A stretch of 32,000 nucleotides of DNA, taken from the NCBI RefSeq assembly GCF_000012925.1, contig NC_007517.1, positions 3,150,001 to 3,182,000 on the forward strand. Reading direction: 5' to 3'. Made by a program: the position numbers and the translations under genes. Below, in pieces: positions 3,951 through 27,028 of the stretch. Numbering within the stretch: the stretch's first letter is position 1; each line of letters starts with the position of its first letter. The notes below the pieces were generated by a model. The model ran no database searches and was not told where the DNA came from. It saw nothing but the letters and a program-made list of their open reading frames with translations. Origin of the DNA: Geobacter metallireducens GS-15 (GTDB lineage Bacteria; Desulfobacterota; Desulfuromonadia; Geobacterales; Geobacteraceae).

Positions 3951-5342
3951 ATGACTCGAATCCTGATCGTCGATGACAACGAGCAGAACCTCTACATGCT
4001 GGAGGTTTTACTCTCCGCGCACGGTTTTCAGGCACTCTCGGCGACAAACGGAGCCGAAGCCCTGGCACTGGCCCAGGCCTCCCCCCCCGATCTCATCATC
4101 AGCGACATCCTCATGCCGGTCATGGATGGGTACGCATTCTGTCGCGAATGCAAGAAGACGGCCCAGCTGAATGATGTGCCGTTCATATTCTACACCGCCA
4201 CCTTCACCGAGGCAGAGGACGAGAAGCTCGCCCTGAGCCTCGGCGCCGACCGCTTTCTCCTCAAGCCTCAGGAGCCGGATGAGATGATGCGGATTGTCCG
4301 CGAGCTGCTCGCCGTGCCGCGGCCCGGAACCGGCCGAGAGCCGTCGGAGAAAGGTCAGGAGCAGGCTGAACACCTCCAGAAGTATGGCGAAGCGCTGTTC
4401 CGGAAGCTGGAAAAAAGGATGGCCGACCTGAAGCAGGCCAACCGGGCGCTGGAACACGAGATCGAAGAGCGCAAAAAGGCCGAACTGGAACTGCAGCAAG
4501 TGAACCGGACCCTCGAAGAACGGGTCGCCGAGCGCACTGCCCTGCTGGCAGCAGCCAACGGGCAGTTGCAGGAGGAAGTCCAGCGCTCCAGGCAGGCCCA
4601 GAACGAGATCGCCCTGCTGAACGACGTTCTGGTGAGGCGGACCGAATCGCTGGAAGGGCTGAACCGGGAACTGGAGGCTTTCAGCTCGGCGGTCACCCAT
4701 GACCTCCAGGCGCCGCTTCGGAGCATCATCGGATACGCCGGCATCGTGCGCGAGGAGTGCGAAAATGCGGTCGACGGGTCGGTGCTCGAATATATCGGCA
4801 GAATCGAGCGGAGCGTCAACAGGATGAACGAGCTGATCGAGGCGCTGCGGGACCTGTCGCAGGCCAGCTCCGCGGCGTTGCATCCCGACACCGTCAACCT
4901 GAGCACCATCGTCCGGGAGATCATCTCCGCCCTGCAGGAAGCGGACTCGGAGCGCCGCGTGACCTTTGTCATAGCCGACGGCGTGACCGCGGAGGCGGAC
5001 AGGCCGCTGATCACATCGGTCATCGACAACCTGCTCAACAACGCCTGGAAGTACAGCCGGCGGAATGAAACGGCGCGGATAGAATTCGGCGCCCTGGAGA
5101 AAGACCAGGAGCACGTCTATTTCGTCAGGGATAACGGCGCCGGTTTTGACATGAAGTACGCTTCGAAGCTTTTTACCCCCTTCCAGCGCCTGCATCGGCA
5201 GGATGAATTCGAAGGGACGGGGGTCGGGCTGGCAACCGTCCAGCGGATCATTCACCGCCACGGCGGCAGGATCTGGGCGGAAGCAAAAGTGGCTGAAGGG
5301 GCAACGTTCTATTTTACCCTCAGTCGGGCAATGCATGGTTAA
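3951..5342 (+). CDS. hybrid response-regulator receiver / histidine kinase (REC-coiled coil-HisKA-HATPase_c)
   Basis: 463 aa. N-terminal receiver (ILIVDDNEQN...ISDILMPVMDGY), a long coiled coil, H-box THDLQAPLRSI, N-box NLLNNAWKY, G-boxes DNGAGFD and GTGVGLA. Confidence 0.9.
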   Translation: MTRILIVDDNEQNLYMLEVLLSAHGFQALSATNGAEALALAQASPPDLIISDILMPVMDGYAFCRECKKTAQLNDVPFIFYTATFTEAEDEKLALSLGADRFLLKPQEPDEMMRIVRELLAVPRPGTGREPSEKGQEQAEHLQKYGEALFRKLEKRMADLKQANRALEHEIEERKKAELELQQVNRTLEERVAERTALLAAANGQLQEEVQRSRQAQNEIALLNDVLVRRTESLEGLNRELEAFSSAVTHDLQAPLRSIIGYAGIVREECENAVDGSVLEYIGRIERSVNRMNELIEALRDLSQASSAALHPDTVNLSTIVREIISALQEADSERRVTFVIADGVTAEADRPLITSVIDNLLNNAWKYSRRNETARIEFGALEKDQEHVYFVRDNGAGFDMKYASKLFTPFQRLHRQDEFEGTGVGLATVQRIIHRHGGRIWAEAKVAEGATFYFTLSRAMHG

Positions 5343-5365
5343 CTGGTTGCCCTCTCCCCCTCGGC

Positions 5366-5385
5366 GCCGGGCATTTCTTCCCGGC
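5366..5385 (+). terminator. weak hairpin downstream of the hybrid kinase gene
   Basis: GCCGGG-CATTTCTT-CCCGGC, a 6-bp stem 24 nt after the stop at 5342. There is no clear T-run. Confidence 0.25.
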
Positions 5386-5650
5386 CTTCTGCTGCTCCCA
5401 TCGCCATCGAAATTCCGGAGTTCCATTCGTCGTTTCGCGCTCCGCCCTTCATCGGCTGGTCAGGCCGACTACTATGGCTTCTGCTGACTTCTGCCGAACA
5501 TGAGGAAGCTGCTTTTCAGCTCCCCTGCACCGGATTTCGCCAGTGCGAGAGCTGAACCTGCCCCGCCGCGGCGAAGACTGCGTGGGAAACCTCATTGTCG
5601 GCCAGGAATCCCTGGAGCGGTATTTTCGCATGACGCAACGGCCCATAATC

Positions 5651-5719
5651 TGCCAACGGCTGAGGGCGCAGCGGCGGCGCGGGTTCACCGCGCCGACCGT
5701 CTGGCGCGCTTTGTTATGC
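5651..5719 (-). other. candidate attC site (last recognisable one, downstream of arsM)
   Basis: Minus strand reads GCATAAC-(55 nt GC-rich imperfect palindrome including GGCGCGG-TGAAC-CCGCGCC)-GTTGGCA and starts directly after the arsM stop. Both R boxes deviate from consensus, so the call is weaker than for the others. Confidence 0.4.
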
Positions 5720-6520
5720 CTATGGTTTTATTGCTTCGATAGTTGCCGAAACTACATAGTCCTCTATTTTGCTTCCCGGCATCCAGTCACGGATGAATGC
5801 TCTGCTCTCCGTTTTTGGATTGATTCGAATATTCACGAAGCCGGTTCGCTCCAACATGGATTCAATTTCCTCGATCGAAGATGCGCCTGCTATGCATCCG
5901 GTGTGGAACGCCATATTATTTTTAATGTCCCCGGGCATTTCGGCGGTGGCAACTACATCGGAAATTGCCAGCCGTCCGCCCGACTTCAAGACACGGAAGG
6001 ACTCGCTAAACACCTTTGCTTTTTCTGGAGATAGGTTGATTACACAATTCGAGATGATGACGTCCACAATGCCATCGGCAACCGGAAGGTTTTCCAACTC
6101 CCCTAATCGAAAATCGACGTTCCCGAAATTGGCTTTATCCGCATTGCGGCGGGACTTCGTAATCATTTCCGGCGTCATGTCAACTCCTATGACATGTCCT
6201 GTGTGGCCGACAGCCCGAGCCGCAAGGAAGCAGTCGAACCCTCCGCCGCTACCAAGGTCGAGCACCGTTTCGCCAAGCTGCAAAGACGCAATGGCCTGCG
6301 GATTGCCGCACCCAAGCCCCAGGTTCGCACCCTCAGGAACAGCCGCCACATCTTCGCCTGAGTAACCCAAGCCAAGCGAGATGTCTTCTGTCGTAGCACC
6401 ATTAGGCGTTCCACAGCACGATGAAGAAGAGCAACCGCAACCTGCCCCACCTGATACGGCAACCTTTCCATAATTCTCCCGAACTGCACCGCGAATCTCT
6501 TCATTCCTTTGCTTGTCCAT
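5720..6520 (-). CDS. arsM: arsenite S-adenosylmethionine methyltransferase (ArsM-type)
   Basis: ORF 5720..6535. Start taken at MDKQRNEE (6520), with GGAGGTG 6 nt upstream. SAM motif VLDLGSGGG. The three ArsM cysteines are in their typical contexts: LGCGNP, ISNCVINL, HTGCIAGA. N-terminal Cys-rich stretch GCGCSSSSCCG. Confidence 0.85.
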   Translation of the reverse strand: MDKQRNEEIRGAVRENYGKVAVSGGAGCGCSSSSCCGTPNGATTEDISLGLGYSGEDVAAVPEGANLGLGCGNPQAIASLQLGETVLDLGSGGGFDCFLAARAVGHTGHVIGVDMTPEMITKSRRNADKANFGNVDFRLGELENLPVADGIVDVIISNCVINLSPEKAKVFSESFRVLKSGGRLAISDVVATAEMPGDIKNNMAFHTGCIAGASSIEEIESMLERTGFVNIRINPKTESRAFIRDWMPGSKIEDYVVSATIEAIKP

Positions 6521-6609
6521 TTTGCACCTCCTCAATAGGGTTTATGAGCAGCGCTCACCCTATAGACGGCAAAAGATCAAAAAGGACGCAACATTAACGC
6601 TGCTGGTAA

Positions 6610-7158
6610 TCAGCAAGCATCACAAGCTTTGCCTTTGCGTTCGTAATCGCAGAGCCGTCCGTTATGGTCTAACTCAAGCCGGCAGCAATCAGCTATCATT
6701 CCCTTCAGCAGAGCGCGTCCGCGCTGTACTCGCGATTTGGCGCCGGAAAGTGACGTCCCCAGCACCTCCGCAACCTCCCTTTGCGTCAAGCCTTCCAATT
6801 CCGACAGAATGATCGCTTCCCGATAAATCTCCGGCAACCGTTGTATCATGGGCTGAAGACAGTCGGACAACTCTTGAACGGCCTTTTCGCCCGGATTCGA
6901 TTCCGGGTGCGCCAACGACACAGGAATACCGGTCGAGGCCTTTTGCGAGCGATAAAGATCGATGATGGCATTTCGCGCAATCTGGTAGAGCCAGCTTTGC
7001 AGCTTTGTCCCGTCCTTCAGGGACGGCAGTCCGGCATGCATCTTCAGGAATACGTTTTGAAGAGTGTCATCTGCAACTGCGTCATCGGCAATCCTGCTCT
7101 TGATGAAGGCGCGAAGCCTTAAATGATATTCTTGCCAAATTTGTTCTGATGTCTTCAT
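6610..7158 (-). CDS. ECF-type sigma-70 family sigma factor with a C-terminal Cys-rich tail (SigZ/CorE-like)
   Basis: ORF 6610..7230. Start at MKTSEQIWQEY (7158), 14 nt downstream of the attC R' box. Region 2 (LQNVFLKMH...SWLYQIARNAIIDLYR) and region 4 (ILSELEGLTQREVAEVLGTSLSGAKSRVQRGR) are recognisable. The tail reads ADCCRLELDHNGRLCDYERKGKACDAC. Confidence 0.85.
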   Translation of the reverse strand: MKTSEQIWQEYHLRLRAFIKSRIADDAVADDTLQNVFLKMHAGLPSLKDGTKLQSWLYQIARNAIIDLYRSQKASTGIPVSLAHPESNPGEKAVQELSDCLQPMIQRLPEIYREAIILSELEGLTQREVAEVLGTSLSGAKSRVQRGRALLKGMIADCCRLELDHNGRLCDYERKGKACDAC

Positions 7159-7171
7159 TGTAAATTCTCTG

Positions 7172-7244
7172 GCATAACGGGTCACGCAGTTGACCCGTTC
7201 GGGCAGCTTTTCCGCCCGACCGGTGTCCAACTGACCAGTTGGGA
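7172..7244 (-). other. attC site between the methyltransferase cassette and the sigma/arsM cassette
   Basis: Minus strand: TCCCAAC-T-GGTCA-GTTG-GAC-ACCGGTCGGGC-GGAAAAGCT-GCCCGAACGGGT-CAAC-TGCG-TGACC-C-GTTATGC, 73 nt. AAC pairs with GTT, GGTCA with TGACC, GTTG with CAAC and CGGGC with GCCCG, with bulged bases. The next gene starts 14 nt after R'. Confidence 0.6.
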
Positions 7245-7348
7245 CTTCTCCTTTTTAGCCTTCTGCCTTTTTACTTTTGTCTCGTGTCCAGGGCTGATCT
7301 CTTTGGGTTGTCTCCAGCCATTGACGATCCACCGGATGCGTCAACGCA

Positions 7349-8095
7349 TCACCGTGACATCAGCGCGAATACACCCCAGCCCAGGTATTCACGCGTGTAA
7401 GCGGTGTAGCGCTCGGGTTCTGAGGTCAGTTGGGCTCGAACCTCTTTCGCTAACTCGTCGTCGGGATTGGCTTCAAGCCATCGGCGCATGGTGAGCCATT
7501 TGGCCGCCTCGTATCTGTCCCAGCCGTCTTGGTCAGCCAGAACCATTTCAACGACATCATAGCCAAGGTGGCCGAAAGACGCGATAAGTTCAGGAAGCAT
7601 GAGGAAGTCGGAGATTGAATTGGCAAGACACCCCTTGGCAACATCTTCCGTCGGCGGTAATTGCCGCCAGTAGGGCTCGCCGATGAGGATAATCCCTCCG
7701 GTGCGCAGGCTCCGCGCCAGAAGCTCGATAGTGCCGGCGACTCCCCCGCCGATCCAAGTGGCCCCGACACAGGCTGCCACACCGACCTTCTCGTCGGAGA
7801 CGTAACCGACAGCATCGCCATGGATGAACTTGACTTGATCGGCGACGCCAAGTTCTACAGCACGGAGTTTCGCTTGTTCGGTGAACAACCGGCTCATGTC
7901 GATGCCGGTGCCGATGACACCGTGATCGCGTGCCCAGGTGCATAGCATCTCTCCCGAACCGCTGCCGAGATCGAGCAAGTGGGCCCCCGTTTCCAGACGC
8001 AACGCCGCGCCGAGAGTGGCGAACTTTTCTGGTGTGAACGGGTTATGGATGCGGTGAGCACTTTCGGTTATGTTGAAGATCCGAGGTATGTCCAT
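7349..8095 (-). CDS. class I SAM-dependent methyltransferase
   Basis: ORF 7349..8146. Start at MDIPRIF (8095) with AAGGAG upstream. Motif I LLDLGSGSGE. The rest has a Rossmann-like pattern. Confidence 0.8.
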   Translation of the reverse strand: MDIPRIFNITESAHRIHNPFTPEKFATLGAALRLETGAHLLDLGSGSGEMLCTWARDHGVIGTGIDMSRLFTEQAKLRAVELGVADQVKFIHGDAVGYVSDEKVGVAACVGATWIGGGVAGTIELLARSLRTGGIILIGEPYWRQLPPTEDVAKGCLANSISDFLMLPELIASFGHLGYDVVEMVLADQDGWDRYEAAKWLTMRRWLEANPDDELAKEVRAQLTSEPERYTAYTREYLGWGVFALMSR

Positions 8096-8115
8096 TTCGG
8101 GAAATCTCCTTACAG

Positions 8116-9262
8116 ATGAATGGAATTCAGGGGACACCATACTCACGGAATTCAGACAGGAATTCAGGGGACACCATACTTATCTCAGTTGAATTAGGTA
8201 TGGTGTCCCCGGAACTCCCCGTCCCCGGAACTCCCCCACACCGGTTGCGGGAGACTCTGTTGCCGATCTCGGAGTCGTCGGCTCACCCTGGCAGGGAGCC
8301 GGTACGACCAGGCAGCTTCCACCAGCATCCGTCGGGCATGGCTGTTGCCGGTCTTTGTAATCCCTCCCCGCTTGGTTGTTTCGCCGCTCGAATGCTCCGA
8401 GGGGACAAGCCCGAGATAGGCCATTAACTGCCGGGGGTGATCGAATCGGCTCAAGTCACCGAGTTCCGCGACGGTCGTCACGGCAACCACCAGAGAGACA
8501 CCGCGCAATGCTTGGAGTGCTTCAACCACCGGACCAACGCGCCACTGCGTGACGAGCTGCCGAATCTGCTCTGTGAAGCGATCGATGCGTTCGCTACAGG
8601 CCCTCACCGCATCGACGTATTCCTGGAGCGTGATCTGCTGGGCCGGGTGCGGCATTTTAATGTCAGAGATCCAGCGCCAGTGGGCGAGGCTCCATAGGGT
8701 TTTGCCGCTGTAGCGAACCCCGCTGCGCAACAGGAATGCATTGAGCTGCTGCCGCGCTTTGCGTTCCGCGCTCTTGGCATCCTCTCGGGCACGGGAGAGG
8801 TCCCGCATCGCTTCGTCCTCAACGTGAGGCACGTAGACCGGCGTCAGTTCGCCAGCCCGGTGCAAACGGGCCAGCATCTCGGCATCCCGTCGGTCGTTCT
8901 TGATCCGGTTGCCGCTCTTCTTCGGGATCAGCGACGGCGCAACCACGATGCAGTCGAACCCCTGTCGGGTCAGGTGACGATAAATCTCATAGCCGCATGG
9001 CCCGGCTTCGTACACAAAATGAAGCTCGCGTCCTTGGGAGACCAGCTTCCGCACGACTTTGTCCAAGGAGTGCAGGTCGCCACCGACGCTTCCATAGTGG
9101 CGGACTTCATTGTCTCGCCCCCAATCGGCAAGAGCTATTTCGATGGAGTTCTTGTGAACATCAAGCCCGACATACGTGATAGACTTTTCCATGACCTGCC
9201 TCCTTGGTTGTGGCTCTGTACTGGTGGTTTCCCATCTCCAGCATAACCCACGTTTCCGCAAG
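8116..9262 (-). mobile_element. IS110-family insertion sequence; boundaries approximate
   Basis: Contains the DEDD-type transposase gene. The short non-coding ends carry repeats: a 22-mer x2 at 8122-8143 and 8159-8180, its inverted 13-mer at 8198-8210, and tandem 16-mers at 8205-8236. It lies between the stop of cassette 5 (9274) and the start of the methyltransferase cassette (8095), where an attC is expected. Confidence 0.6.
8194..9192 (-). CDS. IS110-family transposase (DEDD N-terminal domain plus Transposase_20-like C-terminal domain)
   Basis: ORF 8194..9261. Start at MEKSITYVGLDVHKNSIEIAL (9192) with AAGGAGG upstream. Also has EAGPCGYEIYR...VAPSLIP...KNDRRDA and GVSLVVAVTTVAELGD...LMAYLGLVPSEHSSG...GGITKTGNSHARR, typical of the IS110 family. 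Confidence 0.9.
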   Translation of the reverse strand: MEKSITYVGLDVHKNSIEIALADWGRDNEVRHYGSVGGDLHSLDKVVRKLVSQGRELHFVYEAGPCGYEIYRHLTRQGFDCIVVAPSLIPKKSGNRIKNDRRDAEMLARLHRAGELTPVYVPHVEDEAMRDLSRAREDAKSAERKARQQLNAFLLRSGVRYSGKTLWSLAHWRWISDIKMPHPAQQITLQEYVDAVRACSERIDRFTEQIRQLVTQWRVGPVVEALQALRGVSLVVAVTTVAELGDLSRFDHPRQLMAYLGLVPSEHSSGETTKRGGITKTGNSHARRMLVEAAWSYRLPARVSRRLRDRQQSLPQPVWGSSGDGEFRGHHT

Positions 9263-9595
9263 GGGCAGGTCTTTTACTTTCTACTGTCAGCCATTATGGC
9301 TAGAGCAGCATCAACCGCTAACGTCAAATCAGCTTCTTCAGGCTCAGGTATATTCGCACCTTTATCGGCCAGCAGTTTCCTGACCCACGTTAAAATCTCT
9401 TTTGCAATGTTACAGGTTAAAGTAGTGACATCTTCTCGGGGCGGATTAAACTCCTTAACCGCACCTTTGCTGTCGATGCGTCGCAAAGGACCGATGATGA
9501 AGTTCTTAGTCCCTTGTCCTGCATTAATCATTTGGGAGCCATCATGCGTTGTAGCATTTCGGCAGTAGAAGATGAACTTGCCGTAGGTTGGAGAG

Positions 9596-9601
9596 ATTTG
9601 C
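9596..9601. repeat. target-site duplication ATTTGC (left copy) of the IS21 insertion
   Basis: The identical hexamer ATTTGC directly abuts both IS termini (9596-9601 and 11578-11583). Confidence 0.8.
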
Positions 9602-9673
9602 TGTCAACGGCAATCGAAAATTGACCCACTTTACCGGTTGATCGGCAATTGAAAAATGACCCACCTTCCTGGG

Positions 9674-11508
<1,835 letters not shown>

Positions 11509-11577
11509 CTAGGTTATCAGGAAGAGTGGGTCAATTTTCAATTTCCGAGGTGGGTCATTTTTACATTGCCGCTAACA

Positions 11578-11583
11578 ATTTGC
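11578..11583. repeat. target-site duplication ATTTGC (right copy) of the IS21 insertion
   Basis: See 9596-9601. Confidence 0.8.
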
Positions 11584-11840
11584 TCCCAAGTGACATTGGC
11601 ACCCATCGAAGTCTGGCAGGCATCCTTTATTGCTTGGATTGAGTTCAGATAAGCGCTGAAAAAGTAGTTGAGCCTGTCTAGCTCAATGTTGATAGGGTAG
11701 TTCTGGGCGACATGCTTTCGTTCGATGATCCTTGAGACCCCAACAATCTGGTCTAGAAAAAAGCCCATTTCCCCTATCTTACCGCTCAAATTACTGGCGA
11801 CTGCAATTCGGTGTCGCTGCATTTATGCGTCCTCGATCCC

Positions 11841-11901
11841 TCATAACGGGTTACCGCTGAGCCGCGAGCGTCAGCGAGGCGGCTCTAGTGGTGTGTTGGG
11901 T
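11841..11901 (-). other. attC site of cassette 4
   Basis: Minus strand: ACCCAAC-AC-ACCACTAGAGCCGC-CTCGCTGACGCTC-GCGGCTCAGCGGT-AACCC-GTTATGA, 61 nt. R'' fits RYYYAAC perfectly. The stem is near-perfect with one bulged base. R'' and the 5' arm overlap the last codons and stop of the cassette gene, as is common for cassettes. Confidence 0.6.
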
Positions 11902-12596
11902 GTCGCCTTATGAATCATGAAGCCTACAACTGCATTATCAATGACCTTACTCTCGCTCGTATTCCAGGGACTTCCTTGGAACCTATGAATTGCCTCTGCA
12001 TTTCGTCTCGCAATTTCAGCCATTGCTGTGAACATTTCGATGAATGCTCTCTCCTCCGGGATGCTGAGGCTCTTTCTGTCATAGAAAAAATTGAAAGTGT
12101 ACTCTCGATCAATCGGAGGAAGCAGACAAGGAATAACATGATGCAAGGCTTTTGAATTCGCTACAATCTGTGCTTCGGCAATGCTTACTCTCAAGGAAGT
12201 TAGAACCCTCCAGACCTTTTCTGCAGTCTTTCGAATATTCTCTCGCGGAAGAGTTAACAACGACAACTTTGAGAGGTCTGAAATGGCTTGTAATTGCAGA
12301 TTAAAGCTTTCCTTTATCTCTTCAATGTCTCGCAACTTCGCGTTGCCCGGCCCCATTCGGTGCAGCCCCCAGGATGTGAGCGTTGCGTATAGATATTCGA
12401 AAAAAGTGTGATCGGCAAACAGTGCTTCTATCGACGGAGCGTCATTTCTTGCTTGGATTGTTTTTTCATGGAAATACCAGCAAGGGCCTGTAAAGCGGCC
12501 ACTTTGGGTAAAAACTGTCACGTAAGAATCGAAATCAGCTACCAACTCCTCGACTCTAGTTGCAATTCTTGCAGTGACCTTCTCGCTACTTCCCAT
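11871..12596 (-). CDS. hypothetical protein (cassette 4), 241 aa, no family recognised
   Basis: ORF 11871..12632. Start taken at MGSSEKV (12596), because the longer form would read through the attC R' box. AT-rich. Bounded by attC sites on both sides. Confidence 0.75.
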   Translation of the reverse strand: MGSSEKVTARIATRVEELVADFDSYVTVFTQSGRFTGPCWYFHEKTIQARNDAPSIEALFADHTFFEYLYATLTSWGLHRMGPGNAKLRDIEEIKESFNLQLQAISDLSKLSLLTLPRENIRKTAEKVWRVLTSLRVSIAEAQIVANSKALHHVIPCLLPPIDREYTFNFFYDRKSLSIPEERAFIEMFTAMAEIARRNAEAIHRFQGSPWNTSESKVIDNAVVGFMIHKATPNTPLEPPR

Positions 12597-12611
12597 GCCT
12601 TTTTCCTTTTC

Positions 12612-12674
12612 ACCCAACGTCACAAGGCGCACCGGCGAAGCGTAGCGGAGACCGCGTGCCGCCGCATGTTGGCA
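12612..12674 (-). other. attC site of cassette 3
   Basis: Minus strand, starting immediately after the TGA stop: TGCCAAC-(49 nt GC-rich imperfect palindrome)-GTTGGGT, 63 nt. R' fits GTTRRRY perfectly. CCAAC pairs with GTTGG. The next start codon is 16 nt downstream of R'. Confidence 0.6.
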
Positions 12675-14738
12675 TCATCTCTTCGCCTTCTCTTCAAGAA
12701 TTTCGTCGATATGTCTGAATACAAGGCCACTTAAAGGGTTGAGAACCATATCAAAAAGCGGGTTAGCAACAATTTGGATGCCCTTCTTCAAATATCTAGA
12801 CAAAAATAAATCAAATTCATGGTCCGTTTTCAGGATCTCTATTTTATATTCTGGCAGTTCTATCCCAGCTTTAGACCAGTTAGATAAGTATGTTTTTAAT
12901 TTTAATGGATTATTTAAAATAAATATTGCGTTTTCAATTATAATTGGCTGACTAGTTTCTAAATCTAGTAATATAAATAGAGGAGCATAGTAATTTGTGA
13001 AGCGATCATAGGCTTTTTCAATCGCTAGTGTGTATTTCACTGCTTCAGCATCAATGCATTCAATACACTCTTCATCCTCATCTTTCATCTTTATAGCAAC
13101 CGAGTAAGAGCTAAATGTTTCATTATTTGAAGTATAACAACTGGGATCGCCTTTAATCCTGGCCTTCTCGAATTGCATGTTAAAAAAATCTGCTCTTTTT
13201 GTAGCAGACTCCAGCGTTTCTCTCACTACCTTGCTACGATGATGAACATATTTCGAGCTTCCATCTTCAAGGTTGATTTTTACACAGTAATTACCTTTAA
13301 ATTCACCATGCCCTTCAGGGTTCCACCCCATAAACATAATCTGATTTAGCTTGCCCTCCAAAGATCCAAACATAGCTTGTCCGGTTTGGATAAACTCAAA
13401 CCACGTTTTGTAGTCAAAATCTTTCAAATAATCATACTCGTCAAACACTTCGGCCTTGATTCCCCCCAAGACTCTATCTAGTGGACTTAAGCATTTTTTG
13501 TGAACAAGCCCCAGAGCATGCTCTGCTCCGATCTCGTCAATCTCCACTAAGGGCGCACCATTTTCTGAAATGGAGTCCCCGCAGTGGAGGCATCTTAAAG
13601 GTTGATCATTGCCTTTTCGGATGTCCTCGCAATAGTCGCCATAAGCAAGTGCGAATGGTGAATTCTCAATATCCTCCTCAGTATTTATGGGCAAGAAGCC
13701 GATGTTCTTGTCTTTGAATTCATCAGCGCGTTCTTCGATATATCTTTCTATACCCGAATATGTTGAAGCTCTCGACAAAACATTCCATGTACTGCCATTA
13801 AGCAACTCACATAAGTTGTCGTGAAACTTAACTTTTTTGCTACCAGAATCATCAAATCTGATTAATTCAACAACTAAAAAGTCCTGGCCGTCAATAAATG
13901 ACTCAACGAGGAGAACCTCTCTTCCGCTAGAAATTTTACCGGGGCTCATTTCGATCTTAAAAAAATCCTGTTCCACCGCATGTTTTTTTTCGGGAGTTAA
14001 CGTGCCTATATAATTTCCAAGCTTGGATTCAAGGCCGGATTTGTTTATTGATTGTCTAGCGGATGCTAAAGAGAGGGCTAAAGAAATAGTAGCTGAGAAA
14101 AATAGTTCGGGCTTAACTCTGCTCTTGCTTGTGAGAATAGTAAGAATTGCACCCTCAAGAGGCATGCCTTGCTGTACATCAGCAATGGCAACATACGTTT
14201 TACTCAAAATGTCAGATATGGTTGTGTCAGCTATATTATTATTTGTAATTTCTAGGTATGACGTACTGATACAATTCTTTACCTTGGTATATACGTCTTC
14301 TTCAGATTTATTAAGTGGGTTGTCTTTAAAGCCAGTATCATTTAACCGGATACTTTCTAAAATCTTTCGAAGCTCTTGCTTGATTTTTGATGATGAACCT
14401 GAAGATGTTGCCAGAACAAATTTATGTCCACCAGATGGGTCCTGTAAAAATTGATTTACAAATTGATGAACAGTTTTCATAAATTCTGAGTCTGAACTAT
14501 CAGACATACTAATGTTACGTTTTGCCTGGACGTACAAATTGCCTGTAGTCGTTTTTACAACCATATCATCAACATATGACGAAGATTCAAAGGAAACTTC
14601 TGTAATGGCATGAACTCCATCTAGTCCAATCCCTGACAATGTTTCTATGTCAAGTAGCATTTGGATCAAAAAGTAAGCTGCAAGTCTTTGTTGATAATCA
14701 ATCCCTGTATTAGTTGCTGCTCCGCCACCATTTGACAT
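12675..14738 (-). CDS. 687-aa protein (cassette 3): N-terminal DUF4297/Cap4-like PD-(D/E)xK nuclease motif followed by a large uncharacterised region
   Basis: ORF 12675..14840. Start taken at MSNGGGAATNTGIDYQQ (14738), because the upstream 34 codons run through the GC-rich attC. N-terminus: GIDYQQRLAAYFLIQML...EVSFESSSYVDDMVVKTTTGNLYVQAKR, an E...DD...QxK arrangement as I recall for DUF4297. Very AT-rich, uninterrupted 2 kb frame. Confidence 0.85.
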   Translation of the reverse strand: MSNGGGAATNTGIDYQQRLAAYFLIQMLLDIETLSGIGLDGVHAITEVSFESSSYVDDMVVKTTTGNLYVQAKRNISMSDSSDSEFMKTVHQFVNQFLQDPSGGHKFVLATSSGSSSKIKQELRKILESIRLNDTGFKDNPLNKSEEDVYTKVKNCISTSYLEITNNNIADTTISDILSKTYVAIADVQQGMPLEGAILTILTSKSRVKPELFFSATISLALSLASARQSINKSGLESKLGNYIGTLTPEKKHAVEQDFFKIEMSPGKISSGREVLLVESFIDGQDFLVVELIRFDDSGSKKVKFHDNLCELLNGSTWNVLSRASTYSGIERYIEERADEFKDKNIGFLPINTEEDIENSPFALAYGDYCEDIRKGNDQPLRCLHCGDSISENGAPLVEIDEIGAEHALGLVHKKCLSPLDRVLGGIKAEVFDEYDYLKDFDYKTWFEFIQTGQAMFGSLEGKLNQIMFMGWNPEGHGEFKGNYCVKINLEDGSSKYVHHRSKVVRETLESATKRADFFNMQFEKARIKGDPSCYTSNNETFSSYSVAIKMKDEDEECIECIDAEAVKYTLAIEKAYDRFTNYYAPLFILLDLETSQPIIIENAIFILNNPLKLKTYLSNWSKAGIELPEYKIEILKTDHEFDLFLSRYLKKGIQIVANPLFDMVLNPLSGLVFRHIDEILEEKAKR

Positions 14739-14761
14739 GCGTGTTCCCTTTATTAAATTTT

Positions 14762-14834
14762 GCACAACGGCTTGCGCCCTTGACCCGCCCGGGGCGCTTC
14801 TCAGCCCCGGTCGGTGTCCAAGGGCCTGTTGGAC
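14762..14834 (-). other. attC site of cassette 2 (clearest example)
   Basis: Minus strand: GTCCAAC-AGG-CCCTTGGACACCGACCGGGGC-TGAGAAGC-GCCCCGGGCGGGTCAAGGG-CGCAAGCC-GTTGTGC, 73 nt. R'' fits RYYYAAC perfectly and R' has one mismatch to GTTRRRY. The arms pair (CCCTTG with CAAGGG, CGGGGC with GCCCCG) with extrahelical bases. It is a GC-rich island between two AT-rich genes. Confidence 0.7.
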
Positions 14835-14855
14835 GTCCATCCTGCCTGTGGATTA

Positions 14856-15299
14856 CTATCTGTATTGTCTCTCATCCTTTTGCAATTGGATTACTTCTGG
14901 ATGCAATCGGCAAAAAGAAACCAAATGATTTGTAAGTCGATCATATAAATCATCTTCAATGTAAGGAAGATCTGCCTTCTGTAGATCATTTTCTAATTCA
15001 TCTGGTGGTATGAAGTTCTTTAGCCGTGCAAGATCGTTTGCAATTTCTGCTCTTGTCTCTTTTGAAAAGCGTTCTTCGTTCCCAAGTTTATTTTGAAGGA
15101 AATCAATAAACATCTCAAAACTGTAGTCCCAATTTATGTTTCCATTTTCCTGGGCCTCCCACCGTAGTTTCTCGATGGCACGAAGAATTTCTCCTTGAAC
15201 AGTGTCGGCTTGTCCGGACTTGGGCACAAGATTCTTCCAAATCCACCGTGCTATTTCGAAATCGGAATCAGTGAGATCGATAAAGTTTTTTTCTGTCAT
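14856..15299 (-). CDS. hypothetical acidic protein (cassette 2), 147 aa
   Basis: ORF 14856..15314. ATG at 15299 (MTEKNFIDL) is preferred over the upstream TTG, which is part of a GTTGGAC box. AT-rich. No family recognised. Confidence 0.7.
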   Translation of the reverse strand: MTEKNFIDLTDSDFEIARWIWKNLVPKSGQADTVQGEILRAIEKLRWEAQENGNINWDYSFEMFIDFLQNKLGNEERFSKETRAEIANDLARLKNFIPPDELENDLQKADLPYIEDDLYDRLTNHLVSFCRLHPEVIQLQKDERQYR

Positions 15300-15337
15300 G
15301 TTTTCCTCGTCCAACTCATTATTGAGCAGTTAGAGTC

Positions 15338-15403
15338 TGGTTTATGACAATATAAACATGTTTCTAGTATTAGAAATAAGTTTATATATCCATAAACCTC
15401 CAT
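15338..15403. repeat. AT-rich imperfect palindrome between cassettes 1 and 2
   Basis: GGTTTATGACAATATAAAC (15338-15356) and GTTTATATATCCATAAACC (15385-15403) are reverse complements apart from 3 central bases, with a 28-nt spacer. A perfect GTTRRRY box (GTTGGAC on the minus strand, 15309-15315) lies just before the next start codon. Confidence 0.5.
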
Positions 15404-15427
15404 TGTTTATATTATTATAAGCCACGT

Positions 15428-15790
15428 CTATTTAGCAGTGTTCATCCTGGTTTCTACTACTATTAACTTTTCCAGTTTCGTACCAGCGATACACCCATAC
15501 CTGACGAACCAAACCTGCTGCGCCCGATCCCATCGCCCACCTAATACTCTCACCTGTTCCTGTAATGCCTTTTCTGTCACCCCGACCCGCAGCGGTACCA
15601 GTGCGCTTTCAGGATATTTTGGTGGCGGTGGCGTCCAGTCAGTCTCGCTTACAATGAGCTCGACGGTCTTCACCTGCTTGCGTTTTTCAACGTCATACCG
15701 GTAACGGACGCAAACCAGAGAATCACCGTATTGCGCCAGCAATTTCTTGGTTCCTTTCTGCCCCGGTTTCAGTTTTACCCGCGCATTCAT
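15428..15790 (-). CDS. hypothetical basic protein (attI-proximal cassette 1), 120 aa
   Basis: ORF 15428..15811. Start at MNARVKLKPGQKGTK (15790) with GGAG upstream. The C-terminal LGGRWDRAQQVWFV resembles, from memory, the (A/G)(R/K)WD...W motif of DUF5710-type domains. That resemblance is low-confidence. Confidence 0.7.
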   Translation of the reverse strand: MNARVKLKPGQKGTKKLLAQYGDSLVCVRYRYDVEKRKQVKTVELIVSETDWTPPPPKYPESALVPLRVGVTEKALQEQVRVLGGRWDRAQQVWFVRYGCIAGTKLEKLIVVETRMNTAK

Positions 15791-15823
15791 TTTTTCTCCA
15801 GATGCTCTCATGAATTTTTGTGT

Positions 15824-15851
15824 CTTATAGCACGAATATCAGCCTCCACAA
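15824..15851 (-). promoter_or_regulatory. candidate cassette promoter (TTGTGG-16 nt-TATAAG on the minus strand)
   Basis: -35 at 15846-15851 and -10 at 15824-15829, reading toward cassette 1 and placed between attI and the first cassette gene. Motif match only. Confidence 0.3.
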
Positions 15852-15873
15852 AGAGACTTTATGAGAACTTTCT

Positions 15874-15890
15874 ATTTAACACCGTAACCC
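15874..15890 (-). other. candidate attI core (GGGTTACGGTGTTAAAT on the minus strand)
   Basis: About 60-75 nt upstream of the intI start. Two GTTA-type boxes are present: GTTACGG, and GTTAAAT, which fits GTTRRRY. This resembles the arrangement of integrase-binding sites in attI1. The crossover point is not verifiable here. Confidence 0.3.
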
Positions 15891-15948
15891 GCGCCGCGCT
15901 AAGTTTGCCACCGATCTGCTTGTATTTTTCACTTTCTGGGGATGGCTC

Positions 15949-17298
15949 ATGATTCAAGTCCCGCGTGATACGATGGCCCGGTTCGAGGCTGTTCTCAAGA
16001 GGAAGGGAATGCCGCTCGGCAGCTTTGGGGATTACAGGAAATGGCTGCGCTATTATTTCGATTTTTCGTCAAAATATCCTGAATCTCGAGGCAGGTCTGA
16101 ACAGGTTCGCAAGTTTCTGGAAAAGTTGCGTGACAAGAATCAGTCCGAGGCACAACGAAGACAGGCGGCCCATGCGATCTCACTGTATTTTGAGATGCAG
16201 CGGGAGGAGGAGCCGCCGCAGTGTAATGAAATTCCATCCTCTCCTCCCCAACGATCAACCTGTATTGTTCCACAGTCTCCTCCCCGTCAACGCAAATCAT
16301 ATTACTCCGAGGCCGGCTATCAGGAAAAATCCGATTCCCCCGAATGGGACGAGGTGCTGGGCAAACTGGCGGCCGAGATCAAGGTGCGCCACTATTCCCG
16401 CAAGACCCTGAAAACCTACGCCTTATGGTCGCGAAAATTTCAGCGGTTCCTGAAGAACAAGCCTCCGCAAGAGCTTTCAACCGCCGATGTGAAGGAGTAC
16501 CTGACCTACCTGGCGGTAAAGTGCAATGTCGCGGCTTCGACCCAGAACCAGGCGTTCAATTCGCTGCTATTCCTCTTCCGCCACGGTTTGAAGCGGGAAT
16601 TCGGCGAACTGCGCGATGTGCCGCGGGCGAAGAAGTCCCTGTATGTGCCGGTGGTGCTCTCCCGCGAGGAGATCGACGCCATTCTGAAGCATCTGTCCCA
16701 TCCGTTCAGCCTGGTGGTGAACCTGCTCTTCGGCTGCGGCCTGAGGCTGTTCGAGTGTCTGCAGTTGCGGGTGCGGGATTTCAATTTCGATGCCGTCGTC
16801 CTGACGGTGCATGGCAAGGGGAAAAAGGACCGGACCGTGCCGCTGCCGGAGGCGATCCTTCCGGAGCTGACGGCACAGATTGAACGGGTGAAGGCTTTAC
16901 ACGAAAAGGATCTTGCAGCGGGATACGCGGGGGTGTTCCTCGACGACGCCGTGGAGAAGAAGTATCCCCATGCCCCGAAGGAGCTGATCCACCAGTGGTT
17001 CTTTCCGCAGCAGTCGTTGACGCTGGTGGAGGAAACCGGGGAACTGAGACGCTATCATCTCCACGAGTCCCTGTTGCAGGAGGCTCTGTACGTGGCCGTG
17101 CGCAGGGCGAAGATACCCAAGCGGGTCACGGCCCACACCTTCCGGCATTCCTACGCGACCCACCTCTTGCAAGCCAATTACGATATCCGCACCATCCAGA
17201 CCAAGCTGGGACACGCAAGCCTCAAAACAACCATGATCTATACCCACTGCGTGCCGGTCCGGACGGTGAAGGAGGCGAAAAGCCCGCTGGATTTCTAG
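15949..17298 (+). CDS. intI: integron integrase (IntI-type tyrosine recombinase) with a ~130-aa N-terminal extension
   Basis: 449 aa. Catalytic residues are in place: GCGLRLFECLQLR (Arg), HGKGKKDR (Lys), HTFRHSYATHLL (His-x-x-Arg), MIYTHC (Tyr). It carries the IntI-specific insertion between patches II and III: GVFLDDAVEKKYPHAPKELIHQWFFPQQSLTLVEETGELRRYHLHESLLQ. From memory, IntI1 has LPDALERKYPRAG..W.WFWVF........SG..RRHH at this position. DIRTIQTKLGH...TTMIYTH also matches. Confidence 0.85.
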   Translation: MIQVPRDTMARFEAVLKRKGMPLGSFGDYRKWLRYYFDFSSKYPESRGRSEQVRKFLEKLRDKNQSEAQRRQAAHAISLYFEMQREEEPPQCNEIPSSPPQRSTCIVPQSPPRQRKSYYSEAGYQEKSDSPEWDEVLGKLAAEIKVRHYSRKTLKTYALWSRKFQRFLKNKPPQELSTADVKEYLTYLAVKCNVAASTQNQAFNSLLFLFRHGLKREFGELRDVPRAKKSLYVPVVLSREEIDAILKHLSHPFSLVVNLLFGCGLRLFECLQLRVRDFNFDAVVLTVHGKGKKDRTVPLPEAILPELTAQIERVKALHEKDLAAGYAGVFLDDAVEKKYPHAPKELIHQWFFPQQSLTLVEETGELRRYHLHESLLQEALYVAVRRAKIPKRVTAHTFRHSYATHLLQANYDIRTIQTKLGHASLKTTMIYTHCVPVRTVKEAKSPLDF

Positions 17299-17299
17299 C

Positions 17300-17881
17300 T
17301 CACACCCTTCCCAGATCGAGCCACTTTTCCGCCACCGGCGGCCGGTAGGCGCGGAAGCGCTCTAGCAGCGCATCGGGGCGTTCTTCCACGACGATCATCT
17401 CCCGGAGCTCCTTCTTGACGAATCCCTCGGCCACGGTGTGATCGAGAAACGCGGTCAGCCGGTCGTAGTACCCCGCCACGTTCAAGAGGCCGTACGGCTT
17501 GGCGTGGATGCCGAGCTGTGCCCAGGTGACCACTTCGAAAAACTCGTCGAAAGTCCCCATGCCGCCGGGAAGGGCGACAAAGCCGTCGGCCAGCCCGGCC
17601 ATGAGGGCCTTGCGCTCATGCATGGTCTCCACCACGTGGAGGGCCGAGAGCCCGGGGTGGGCGATCTCCTTGGCCTCCAGGCAGCGGGGGATGACGCCGA
17701 TCACCTCGCCGCCGGCTGCCAGGGCCGCGTCGGCCGCGGCCGTCATGAGGCCGATACTCGACCCGCCGTAGACGAGGCCGATCCCCTCCCGGGCCAGAAG
17801 CCGGCCCATCGCCTCGGCGGCGGCGCGATAGACGGGGTTCCTGCCGGGGCTGGAACCGCAGAAGACGCAGATACGTTTCAT
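17300..17881 (-). CDS. LOG-family (TIGR00730) cytokinin riboside 5'-monophosphate phosphoribohydrolase-like protein
   Basis: ORF 17300..18196. Start at MKRICVFCGSS (17881) with GGGAGG upstream. Motifs GGSSIGLM and PGGMGTFDE. Confidence 0.85.
   Translation of the reverse strand: MKRICVFCGSSPGRNPVYRAAAEAMGRLLAREGIGLVYGGSSIGLMTAAADAALAAGGEVIGVIPRCLEAKEIAHPGLSALHVVETMHERKALMAGLADGFVALPGGMGTFDEFFEVVTWAQLGIHAKPYGLLNVAGYYDRLTAFLDHTVAEGFVKKELREMIVVEERPDALLERFRAYRPPVAEKWLDLGRV

Positions 17882-25792: not shown

Positions 25793-27028
<1,236 letters not shown>

Follow-up and report, generated by a model that had tools for sequence, protein, structure and literature searches.

Does an integron platform hold anything besides its integrase gene and attI? 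To our knowledge, the current view is that integrons recombine with no more than IntI, attI, attC and host factors, and automatic tools treat all sequence between intI and the first attC as cargo. The question is raised by a locus in a 32,000-nt window of the Geobacter metallireducens GS-15 genome (the window is the whole stretch of DNA that was analyzed, and all coordinates are positions in it). An earlier note on the sequence had described a chromosomal integron with an intact intI and seven minus-strand cassettes, hit by two insertion sequences (ISs). We find that the locus is very probably a small chromosomal integron, of a kind that is frequent in the Desulfuromonadales, with an eroded array and an extra module between intI and attI, composed of the open reading frame (ORF) ORF1 and a set of palindromes. 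As an integron, the locus is unremarkable: it already carries an annotation, papers have dealt with its intI, and mobile elements have left it half-eroded. The intI genes of G. metallireducens were analyzed already by Nemergut et al. 2008 (PMC2426708) and Cambray et al. 2011 (PMC3108266), and the protein is annotated as 'integron integrase' in NCBI; thus, the integron is not new and the novelty first attributed to it does not hold. What is worth following up is the combination of an IntI that has an N-terminal extension with a conserved small gene and lineage-specific palindromes before attI, of which we found no description in the searchable literature.

The integrase and the attC sites

The intI gene (15949-17298, plus strand) is an intact ORF encoding an integron integrase of 449 amino acids (aa). 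The protein scores 368.8 bits against TIGR02249, the 'integron integrase' model (cutoff 265), and 137 and 134 bits against the XerC and XerD models, far under their cutoffs of 335 and 330. VchIntIA (PDB 2A3V) aligns to residues 144-436 with two single-residue gaps (phmmer E=1.5e-69), and the alignment spans the IntI-specific segment as well as the RLxE, GKGxK, HxxRH, GH and IYTH motifs. The catalytic residues R266, K292, H396, R399, H422 and Y431 are matched to those of 2A3V and are invariant in 15 relatives. The recombinase is thus an IntI and not a Xer or phage integrase, as the earlier note had stated, and the NCBI entry 'integron integrase [G. metallireducens RCH3]' is 100% identical to it. 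In front of the core lies an N-terminal extension (15949-16353, plus strand), which is composed of a second SAM-like domain (aa 10-82), a variable linker and a conserved AGYQEKSDSPEWD motif. The domain is matched by PF13495 with E=1.7e-5 when residues 1-135 are searched alone. This extension is found in 15 of 15 aligned relatives, and its identity to most of them is 40-53%, compared with 75-96% for the core.

To locate attC sites, we used a covariance model, R1, built from 20 hairpins upstream of intI homologues in other genomes and without window sequence; its training alignment contains compensatory changes in 11 of 18 pairs. The five window attC sites were also aligned with MAFFT, but this alignment takes no account of structure and no model was based on it. 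A model-free scan took every AAC...GTT pair spaced by 48-143 nt on both window strands, about 1000 candidates, with the ends forced to be paired. The five attC sites proposed in the earlier note were recovered at the same positions as the top five window matches of R1 in an unfiltered run, in the order A, D, E, C, B and all on the plus strand; the sixth match is partial, with 16.4 bits. attC A (14762-14834) scores 78.9 bits (E=2e-19), and its DNA fold of -21.8 kcal/mol (z -3.1) has bulges on the 3' arm. attC D (7172-7244), which belongs to the same sequence family, scores 57.1 bits (E=2e-13). The last site, attC E (5651-5719), scores 19.9 bits (E=0.003; fold z -4.1) and is the best AAC...GTT hairpin of the window, and attC C (11841-11901) scores 19.0 bits (E=0.006; fold z -2.5). 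The weakest site is attC B (12612-12674), the fifth-best match with 17.6 bits (E=0.014), which has close relatives upstream of intI in two related loci, L075 and L079. The best single hairpins of the model-free scan are 5655-5715 (E), 14766-14830 (A), 7176-7240 (D) and 11845-11897 (C). Overall, the five sites belong to at least three sequence families, and only A and D share one.

The same structures recur in a related set of 80 loci encoding IntI relatives. R1 gives 79 matches at E<=0.01 in this set, all on the expected plus strand and 59 of them outside the training set, and every match compared with intI coordinates lies upstream of intI. In the same hairpin scan, these loci show 62 strong hairpins in the 362 kb that precede intI, compared with 14 in 610 kb downstream, and many of the upstream hairpins are near-copies of the window attC sites. 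In an alignment of 89 attC sites, 91.6% of the cells pair, compared with 70.4% in shuffles and 27-46% in slid controls, and 313 double-sided changes are seen where 120 are expected. The AAC/GTT pairs are present in 89 of 89 sites at two of the three positions and in 88 of 89 at the third. The bulged bases lie on the 3' arm as read on the plus strand; in the Vibrio cholerae repeat (VCR) and aadA7 attC structures, 3'-arm bulges mark the recombinogenic bottom strand for minus-strand genes. Near-identical copies of the attC A type (AACGG-N5-GCCCTTGACCCG...CGGTCGGTGTCCAAGGGC) were also observed in L013, L016, L018, L026, L033, L073 and L075. Judged from these copies, the attC A type is a family common to different Geobacteraceae species and metagenome-assembled genomes, rather than one kept within a single array. 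The conserved attC families that R1 shows across Geobacteraceae species are useful for assigning metagenomic cassettes to their hosts.

These results also decide against a locus that is not an integron at all, in which a Xer- or phage-type recombinase would lie beside genes separated by terminator hairpins or hairpins of the repetitive extragenic palindromic (REP) kind. The hairpins are indeed GC-rich and terminator-like, just past stop codons, and the recombinase weakly matches the XerC/D models. However, those matches are far under their cutoffs and the integron model is above its own, the hairpins have invariant AAC/GTT ends with one-sided bulges and occur in 80 other genomes on one strand only, on the cassette side of intI, and a terminator scan of 15200-16050 found none. 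We give this explanation almost no weight, as it is already refuted by the IntI family scores and the attC covariance results. Both outcomes that the earlier note had named as refuting its reading are likewise absent, since a covariance model for attC matches every site it listed and the recombinase belongs to IntI.

ORF1, the palindromes and the attI core

ORF1 (15428-15790, minus strand) encodes a basic protein of 120 aa (isoelectric point 9.9), the C-terminal half of which resembles DUF5710. Among the 80 related loci, 44 have a homologue (41-89% identity) that is divergent from intI and separated by about 100-170 nt from its start, and the same place and orientation were seen in three of three further homologues on long contigs, which were taken from a protein search. 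The family is large: 1197 homologues in 90% clusters and 2481 representatives at 50% identity, mostly of 110-130 aa and unnamed. ORF1 is followed by five palindromes of about 18 bp and of the GTTTAT-N6-ATAAAC type, found as regular-expression matches at 15450-15467, 15405-15422, 15380-15397, 15360-15377 and 15340-15357. The first overlaps the final ORF1 codons, and the array region has a hairpin z-score of -5.9. The ORF1-bearing relatives have 3-7 palindromes (about 18 bp) after ORF1 and then the conserved attI core, and the palindrome motif varies with the ORF1 lineage (GTTTAT..ATAAAC, CATATA..TAGATG, GCATCTAATATTAGATGC and TCCTATATAGGAAAC).

The association of the repeats with ORF1 was quantified by repeat-family size, i.e. 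the number of copies in the largest family of repeated 16-mers within the 650 nt next to intI. The mean is 4.8 copies with ORF1 (n=38 including the window), 2.0 without ORF1 (n=23) and 2.1 in control DNA, and the difference between ORF1-bearing and ORF1-less loci is significant (Mann-Whitney p=1e-10). Among the ORF1-less loci, 22 of 23 have <=2 copies, the same as control DNA. A generic count of palindromes near intI discriminated poorly (4.5 vs 3.4 vs 2.6), and repeat-family size was used in its place.

Beyond the palindromes lies the attI core, CAGACTCTAACTGCTCAATAATGAG|TTGGAC (15309-15339, minus strand), with the G|TT crossover at 15315/15314. The core ...TCAAtaAcGAGTT is kept clade-wide, with or without ORF1, and the related loci share the design ...CTAAC(N)6-7TCAATAACGAG|TT. 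Similarity between genomes ends directly after GAGTT, 13 nt before the ATG of the first cassette gene. From this sequence conservation, the core ending in GAG|TT beside intI is assigned as attI, the predicted cassette insertion point. ORF1-less relatives have the same core about 280 nt from intI and no palindrome array. In the window, the core is about 630 nt from intI, an atypical distance, since ORF1 intervenes. The earlier note had counted every gene from 15790 downwards as a cassette gene; ORF1 must be taken out of this count, because it is a conserved neighbour of intI on the upstream side of the attI crossover and hence a platform gene. An AT-rich hairpin at 15339-15398 was considered as a sixth attC and rejected: its outer stem has GTT...AAC polarity, its inner AAC...GTT pair spans only 37 nt, R1 does not match it and comparison places it in the conserved attI region.

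Regarding transcription, a candidate extended -10 element (TGCTATAAG, 15824-15832, minus strand) points toward ORF1 and the cassettes. Its T, G, T and A (TGnTA) are invariant in 10 relatives, and it is a possible cassette promoter (Pc). The platform was also compared with that of Geobacter hydrogenophilus (L012, 1136-2977, vs window 15428-17298): the two share 96% identity in the IntI core but only 44% in the N-terminal domain and in ORF1, and their palindromes are of different types. This implies that the front of the platform was exchanged in one block, with a recombination breakpoint inside intI. A literature search returned nothing relevant on an integron gene between intI and attI, on an IntI N-terminal extension or on Desulfuromonadales attC sites.

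Possible roles of the module and comparison with known systems

Recombination of attI with a folded attC by IntI, with cassette entry at attI, is established integron biology. At this locus, IntI would recombine the double-stranded attI core at its G|TT (15315/15314) with the folded bottom strand of the attC hairpins, and new cassettes would enter beside attI and be transcribed from an upstream promoter. Because the conserved extended -10 lies upstream of ORF1, ORF1 would be the first gene of the cassette operon. ORF1 itself most likely serves integrons of this type as an accessory or regulatory factor that binds DNA sequence-specifically; it would recognize the palindromes and modulate either recombination at attI or transcription that reads through into the cassettes. 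A broader proposal, to which we assign slightly less than an even chance, is that in a large clade of environmental integrons (Geobacteraceae, Desulfuromonadales and relatives) a basic protein of about 120 aa and 3-7 lineage-specific palindromes may form a third platform component, a sequence-specific factor that would control attI integration or cassette expression, possibly together with the IntI N-terminal domain. If ORF1 and the palindromes are such an accessory module, widespread soil and sediment integrons would be regulated or assembled unlike the Vibrio and class 1 models, ORF1 homologues would have been miscounted as cassette genes, and a large family of unnamed small proteins would gain a function.

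Several results weigh against our overall interpretation of the locus and its ORF1 module. ORF1 has no recognizable DNA-binding fold: its AlphaFold2 model has a predicted local distance difference test score (pLDDT) of 69, and a Foldseek search of the PDB gave no match below E=1. Homology also gave no function, as Pfam returned only a sub-threshold DUF5710 match and NCBIfam and PADLOC returned nothing, the longer family members carry no informative fusions, and neither in sequence nor in fold could a relationship to Xis or IHF be seen. DUF5710 is mentioned in a single paper, which gives no functional information. About one-third of the relatives with enough upstream sequence lack ORF1; therefore, it is not required by this integrase clade. 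Because the IntI N-terminal domain is part of the block swapped in G. hydrogenophilus, it is a candidate binder as well as ORF1. A simple sigma-70 consensus scan found no promoter, the extended -10 being missed because its -35 is poor. In addition to its low score, attC B has a free fold (z 0.13) no better than shuffles. Lastly, the ten contigs of public G. metallireducens assemblies that were compared, which include strain RCH3 and are 99.98-100% identical to the window, do not differ in the array, and thus there is no sign of recent cassette turnover.

Alternatively, the palindromes could be arm-type sites of IntI, read by its extra N-terminal SAM-like domain in the manner of lambda Int, with ORF1 as a co-factor or irrelevant. 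The conservation of this domain in the IntI of the clade, its much faster evolution than that of the core (40-53% vs 75-96%) and the joint divergence of the N-terminal domain, ORF1 and palindrome type in G. hydrogenophilus beside a 96% identical IntI core all fit such sites. However, the ORF1-less relatives keep the IntI N-terminal domain yet have no repeat array (<=2 copies in 22 of 23), and the correlation between ORF1 identity and N-terminal domain identity is weak (rho 0.26, p=0.09), so we consider arm-type sites quite unlikely. ORF1 and its palindromes could instead be a passenger without an integron role, for example an anciently fixed insertion or a small selfish or partition-like module at attI. 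Centromere-binding and iteron systems, too, combine a small basic protein with a neighbouring array of the repeats that belong to it, and both the absence of ORF1 from about one-third of related platforms and the lack of functional homology agree with a passenger. We nevertheless hold it to be fairly unlikely, because the position and orientation of ORF1 between intI and the attI core are constant in 44 loci and in three of three extra ones, no partner ATPase or replication gene lies near it and the family is large and conserved, with 2481 representatives.

A further alternative concerns the activity of the whole locus, which could be a dead relic with a recognizable integrase and sites that no longer captures or shuffles cassettes. 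The identity of the array in the ten contigs, including that of strain RCH3, its two insertion sequences, attC-removing deletion and intron remnant, and the small number of attC sites left (five) would all be expected of a relic. On the other hand, intI is full length and highly conserved with all catalytic residues, attI and four attC sites are well formed, and the compared strains are nearly clonal, so little turnover is expected among them. A dead locus is therefore possible but somewhat improbable. The accessory-factor role for ORF1 in a small chromosomal integron remains the interpretation that we favor.

Comparison with known systems shows which parts of the locus are familiar. It resembles the Vibrio cholerae chromosomal integron in the IntI insertion and catalytic residues, in the divergence of intI from the cassettes and in its fixed chromosomal position, and its attC sites resemble the VCR type in their AAC/GTT ends and in the extrahelical bases on the bottom-strand 3' arm. 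V. cholerae, however, has >100 attC sites of one uniform repeat, compared with five sites of at least three families here, where IntI also has an extra N-terminal region of about 135 aa and where a conserved gene and a palindrome array separate intI from attI. Thus, the locus keeps to one location but lacks the tens of cassettes and highly similar attC sites of a superintegron. It does not belong to mobile integron classes 1-5 either, as IntI scores 250.7 bits against the mobile-integron equivalog NF011946, under the cutoff of 435, and there is no transposon context. In attI1, which has a simple site plus the DR1 and DR2 repeats, the repeats on the intI side bind IntI1 and enhance recombination (PMC3146285, citing Partridge 2000). 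The class 1 platform is like the present one in having a recombination core ending in GTT and extra repeated sites on the intI side. The class 1 attI adjoins intI and its Pc is inside intI1, whereas here the core is about 630 nt away and the repeats are 3-7 lineage-variable palindromes of 18 bp. Lambda-type modules offer an analogy only, in their extra N-terminal DNA-binding-like domain, small basic protein and repeats flanking the core; in contrast to lambda Int/Xis/IHF, the partner site here is a folded single strand (attC).

The cassettes, the erosion of the array and the flanks

The array is composed of five attC-bounded units on the minus strand, divergent from intI; since there are five attC sites, the seven cassettes of the earlier note are reduced to five such units. 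R1 found no attC in the ORF1-ORF2 or sigZ-arsM gaps or next to the IS110 element described below. Degenerate attC sites in the sigZ-arsM gap or beside IS110 were also rejected, as R1 has no match there even at E<=10 and the folds do not surpass those of shuffles. The short leaders reported earlier are real, with start codons 9-23 nt past each R' box and no room for a promoter of their own. The reported jumps in composition were also reproduced: the guanine-cytosine (GC) fraction is 0.36-0.42 at 12.5-15.5 kb, 0.53-0.56 at 5.5-7.5 kb and 0.60-0.74 in the flanks.

All units and their genes are on the minus strand. Cassette 1 (15314-14768) contains an ORF of 147 aa (14856-15299) and cassette 3 (12617-11847) one of 241 aa (11871-12596), neither of which has a family. 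The ORF of cassette 2 (14767-12618) encodes 687 aa (12675-14738), and the N-terminal 240 aa or so match PADLOC PDC-M54A (E=8e-31), LmuA (1e-7) and HamA/DUF1837 (3e-4); the protein has no Pfam match and its C-terminal 440 aa are unmatched. Cassette 2 may carry an anti-phage gene with an N-terminus that resembles defence-system nuclease domains. Unit 4 (11846-7178) is a composite of the split ORF5, an IS21 element, an IS110 element and a gene for a methyltransferase. This S-adenosylmethionine-dependent enzyme of 248 aa (7349-8095; Pfam) represents the remains of a fifth original cassette, and L088 has a homologue with 88% identity in the cassette-side flank of a different intI. Cassette 5 (7177-5657) has two genes with no attC between them, sigZ for an extracytoplasmic function (ECF) sigma factor (6610-7158; NF007215 257 bits, cutoff 212) and then arsM for an arsenite methyltransferase (5720-6520; NF008823 367.9 bits, cutoff 263). 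The presence of both in one 1.5-kb cassette, with its own regulator-like gene, is unusual. The view that the cargo is mostly ORFan is thus half true: it fits the ORFs without a family and fails for ArsM, SigZ, the second methyltransferase and the defence-type N-terminal domain. Two cargo genes, ORF5 and the methyltransferase gene, have homologues beside other integrases or attC sites.

The damage by two insertion sequences seen in the earlier note is real and is confined to unit 4, where IS21 (IstA, IstB) and an IS110-family transposase are recognized. The IS21-family element (9602-11577, minus strand, 1976 bp) contains istA (10465-11490) and istB (9674-10468), matched by Pfam rve and IstB_IS21. 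It has terminal repeats and a 6-bp target duplication, GCAAAT, at 9596-9601 and 11578-11583. ORF5, the gene of cassette 4, is cut by the element into a 5' part (11578-11822, minus strand, 82-85% identical to P0241) and a middle part (9274-9595, minus strand), and excision of IS21 with one target duplication restores an ORF5 of 188 aa. Element ends at 11565/9602 with a 4-bp duplication were rejected, as excision leaves a frameshift. The same-strain assemblies that extend this far break at 11548-11577, from which it follows that IS21 is repeated in the genome.

The IS110-family element (about 8122-9301, minus strand, edges approximate) encodes an intact transposase of 332 aa (8194-9192; Pfam DEDD_Tnp_IS110 and Transposase_20), which has full-length similarity to IS110 transposases and is present as a single copy in the genome. 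Its ends were set by comparison only, the left edge from L095 and the right edge from L088. In the metagenomic contig L095, the intact ORF5 homologue is a cassette flanked on both sides by attC, and in the window the homology of ORF5 to its 231-aa relatives stops at 9301 (aa 180). By this comparison, IS110 has taken the place of the last 150 nt or so of ORF5, of the attC that belonged to it and of the beginning of the following cassette, so the array once held at least six cassettes. A clean insertion of IS110 into an attC was rejected, since ORF5 is truncated at residue 180 of 231. Insertion sequences of the IS1111-attC group target integrons; in contrast to these, the IS110 flanks here are a truncated gene and a cassette leader, and neither holds an attC half. 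At the 3' end of the element (8122-8240), the 22-nt GGAATTCAGGGGACACCATACT occurs twice directly and once inverted, with a long hairpin overlapping the transposase stop. A similar hairpin lies inside another integron array (L073, 5243-5318) with no transposase nearby, and the hairpin could be an IS-end structure, a non-coding RNA or a small non-autonomous derivative.

Beyond the array, 14 nt after attC E, begins a group II intron remnant of about 275 nt in sense with the cassettes (5363-5637, minus strand; Rfam RF01998 54.9 bits at 5444-5528), followed by a hybrid histidine kinase/response regulator gene (3951-5342, plus strand). The remnant has no reverse transcriptase (RT) and no D5/D6 domains, and plasmid records gave no match to it. 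With 86% identity, it matches a portion of a complete intron that lies in the L085 array in the same orientation. That intron (L085 6868-8680, minus strand; RF02001, RF01998 and RF00029), with an RT ORF that is apparently frameshifted, lies inside the cassette array about 100 nt after an attC and is also in sense with the cassettes. IIC-attC introns are reported in the opposite orientation to cassettes. In contrast, the remnant here is in the sense orientation, 14 nt past attC E, and is not a complete, antisense intron within an attC. Geobacter integron-associated introns are already on record, and group IIC-attC introns target integrons (PMC3001079). An ORF of 472 aa (4008-5426, minus strand), antisense to the hybrid kinase gene and without any family or Pfam match, is probably a high-GC artefact; it starts inside the remnant, at the place expected for the intron reverse-transcriptase gene.

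On the other side, the boundary is as sharp as had been reported, with the intI stop (17298) and the stop of a LOG-family gene (17300) 1 nt apart. This gene (17300-17881, minus strand; TIGR00730 201 bits; PF03641, 'possible lysine decarboxylase') is the fixed chromosomal flank, and G. hydrogenophilus has the same junction of intI with the LOG gene, a chromosomal site common to both species. The flanks hold housekeeping genes (LOG-family, ROK, SUI1, tamA and tamB) without transposon context. Just after tamB, a second IS110-family element (25889-27028, plus strand), which has 25% identity to that of the array and is unrelated to it, accounts for the dip in GC at 25.5-27 kb. Directly upstream of its transposase lies an AT-rich, perfect-looking hairpin of 107 nt (25795-25901).

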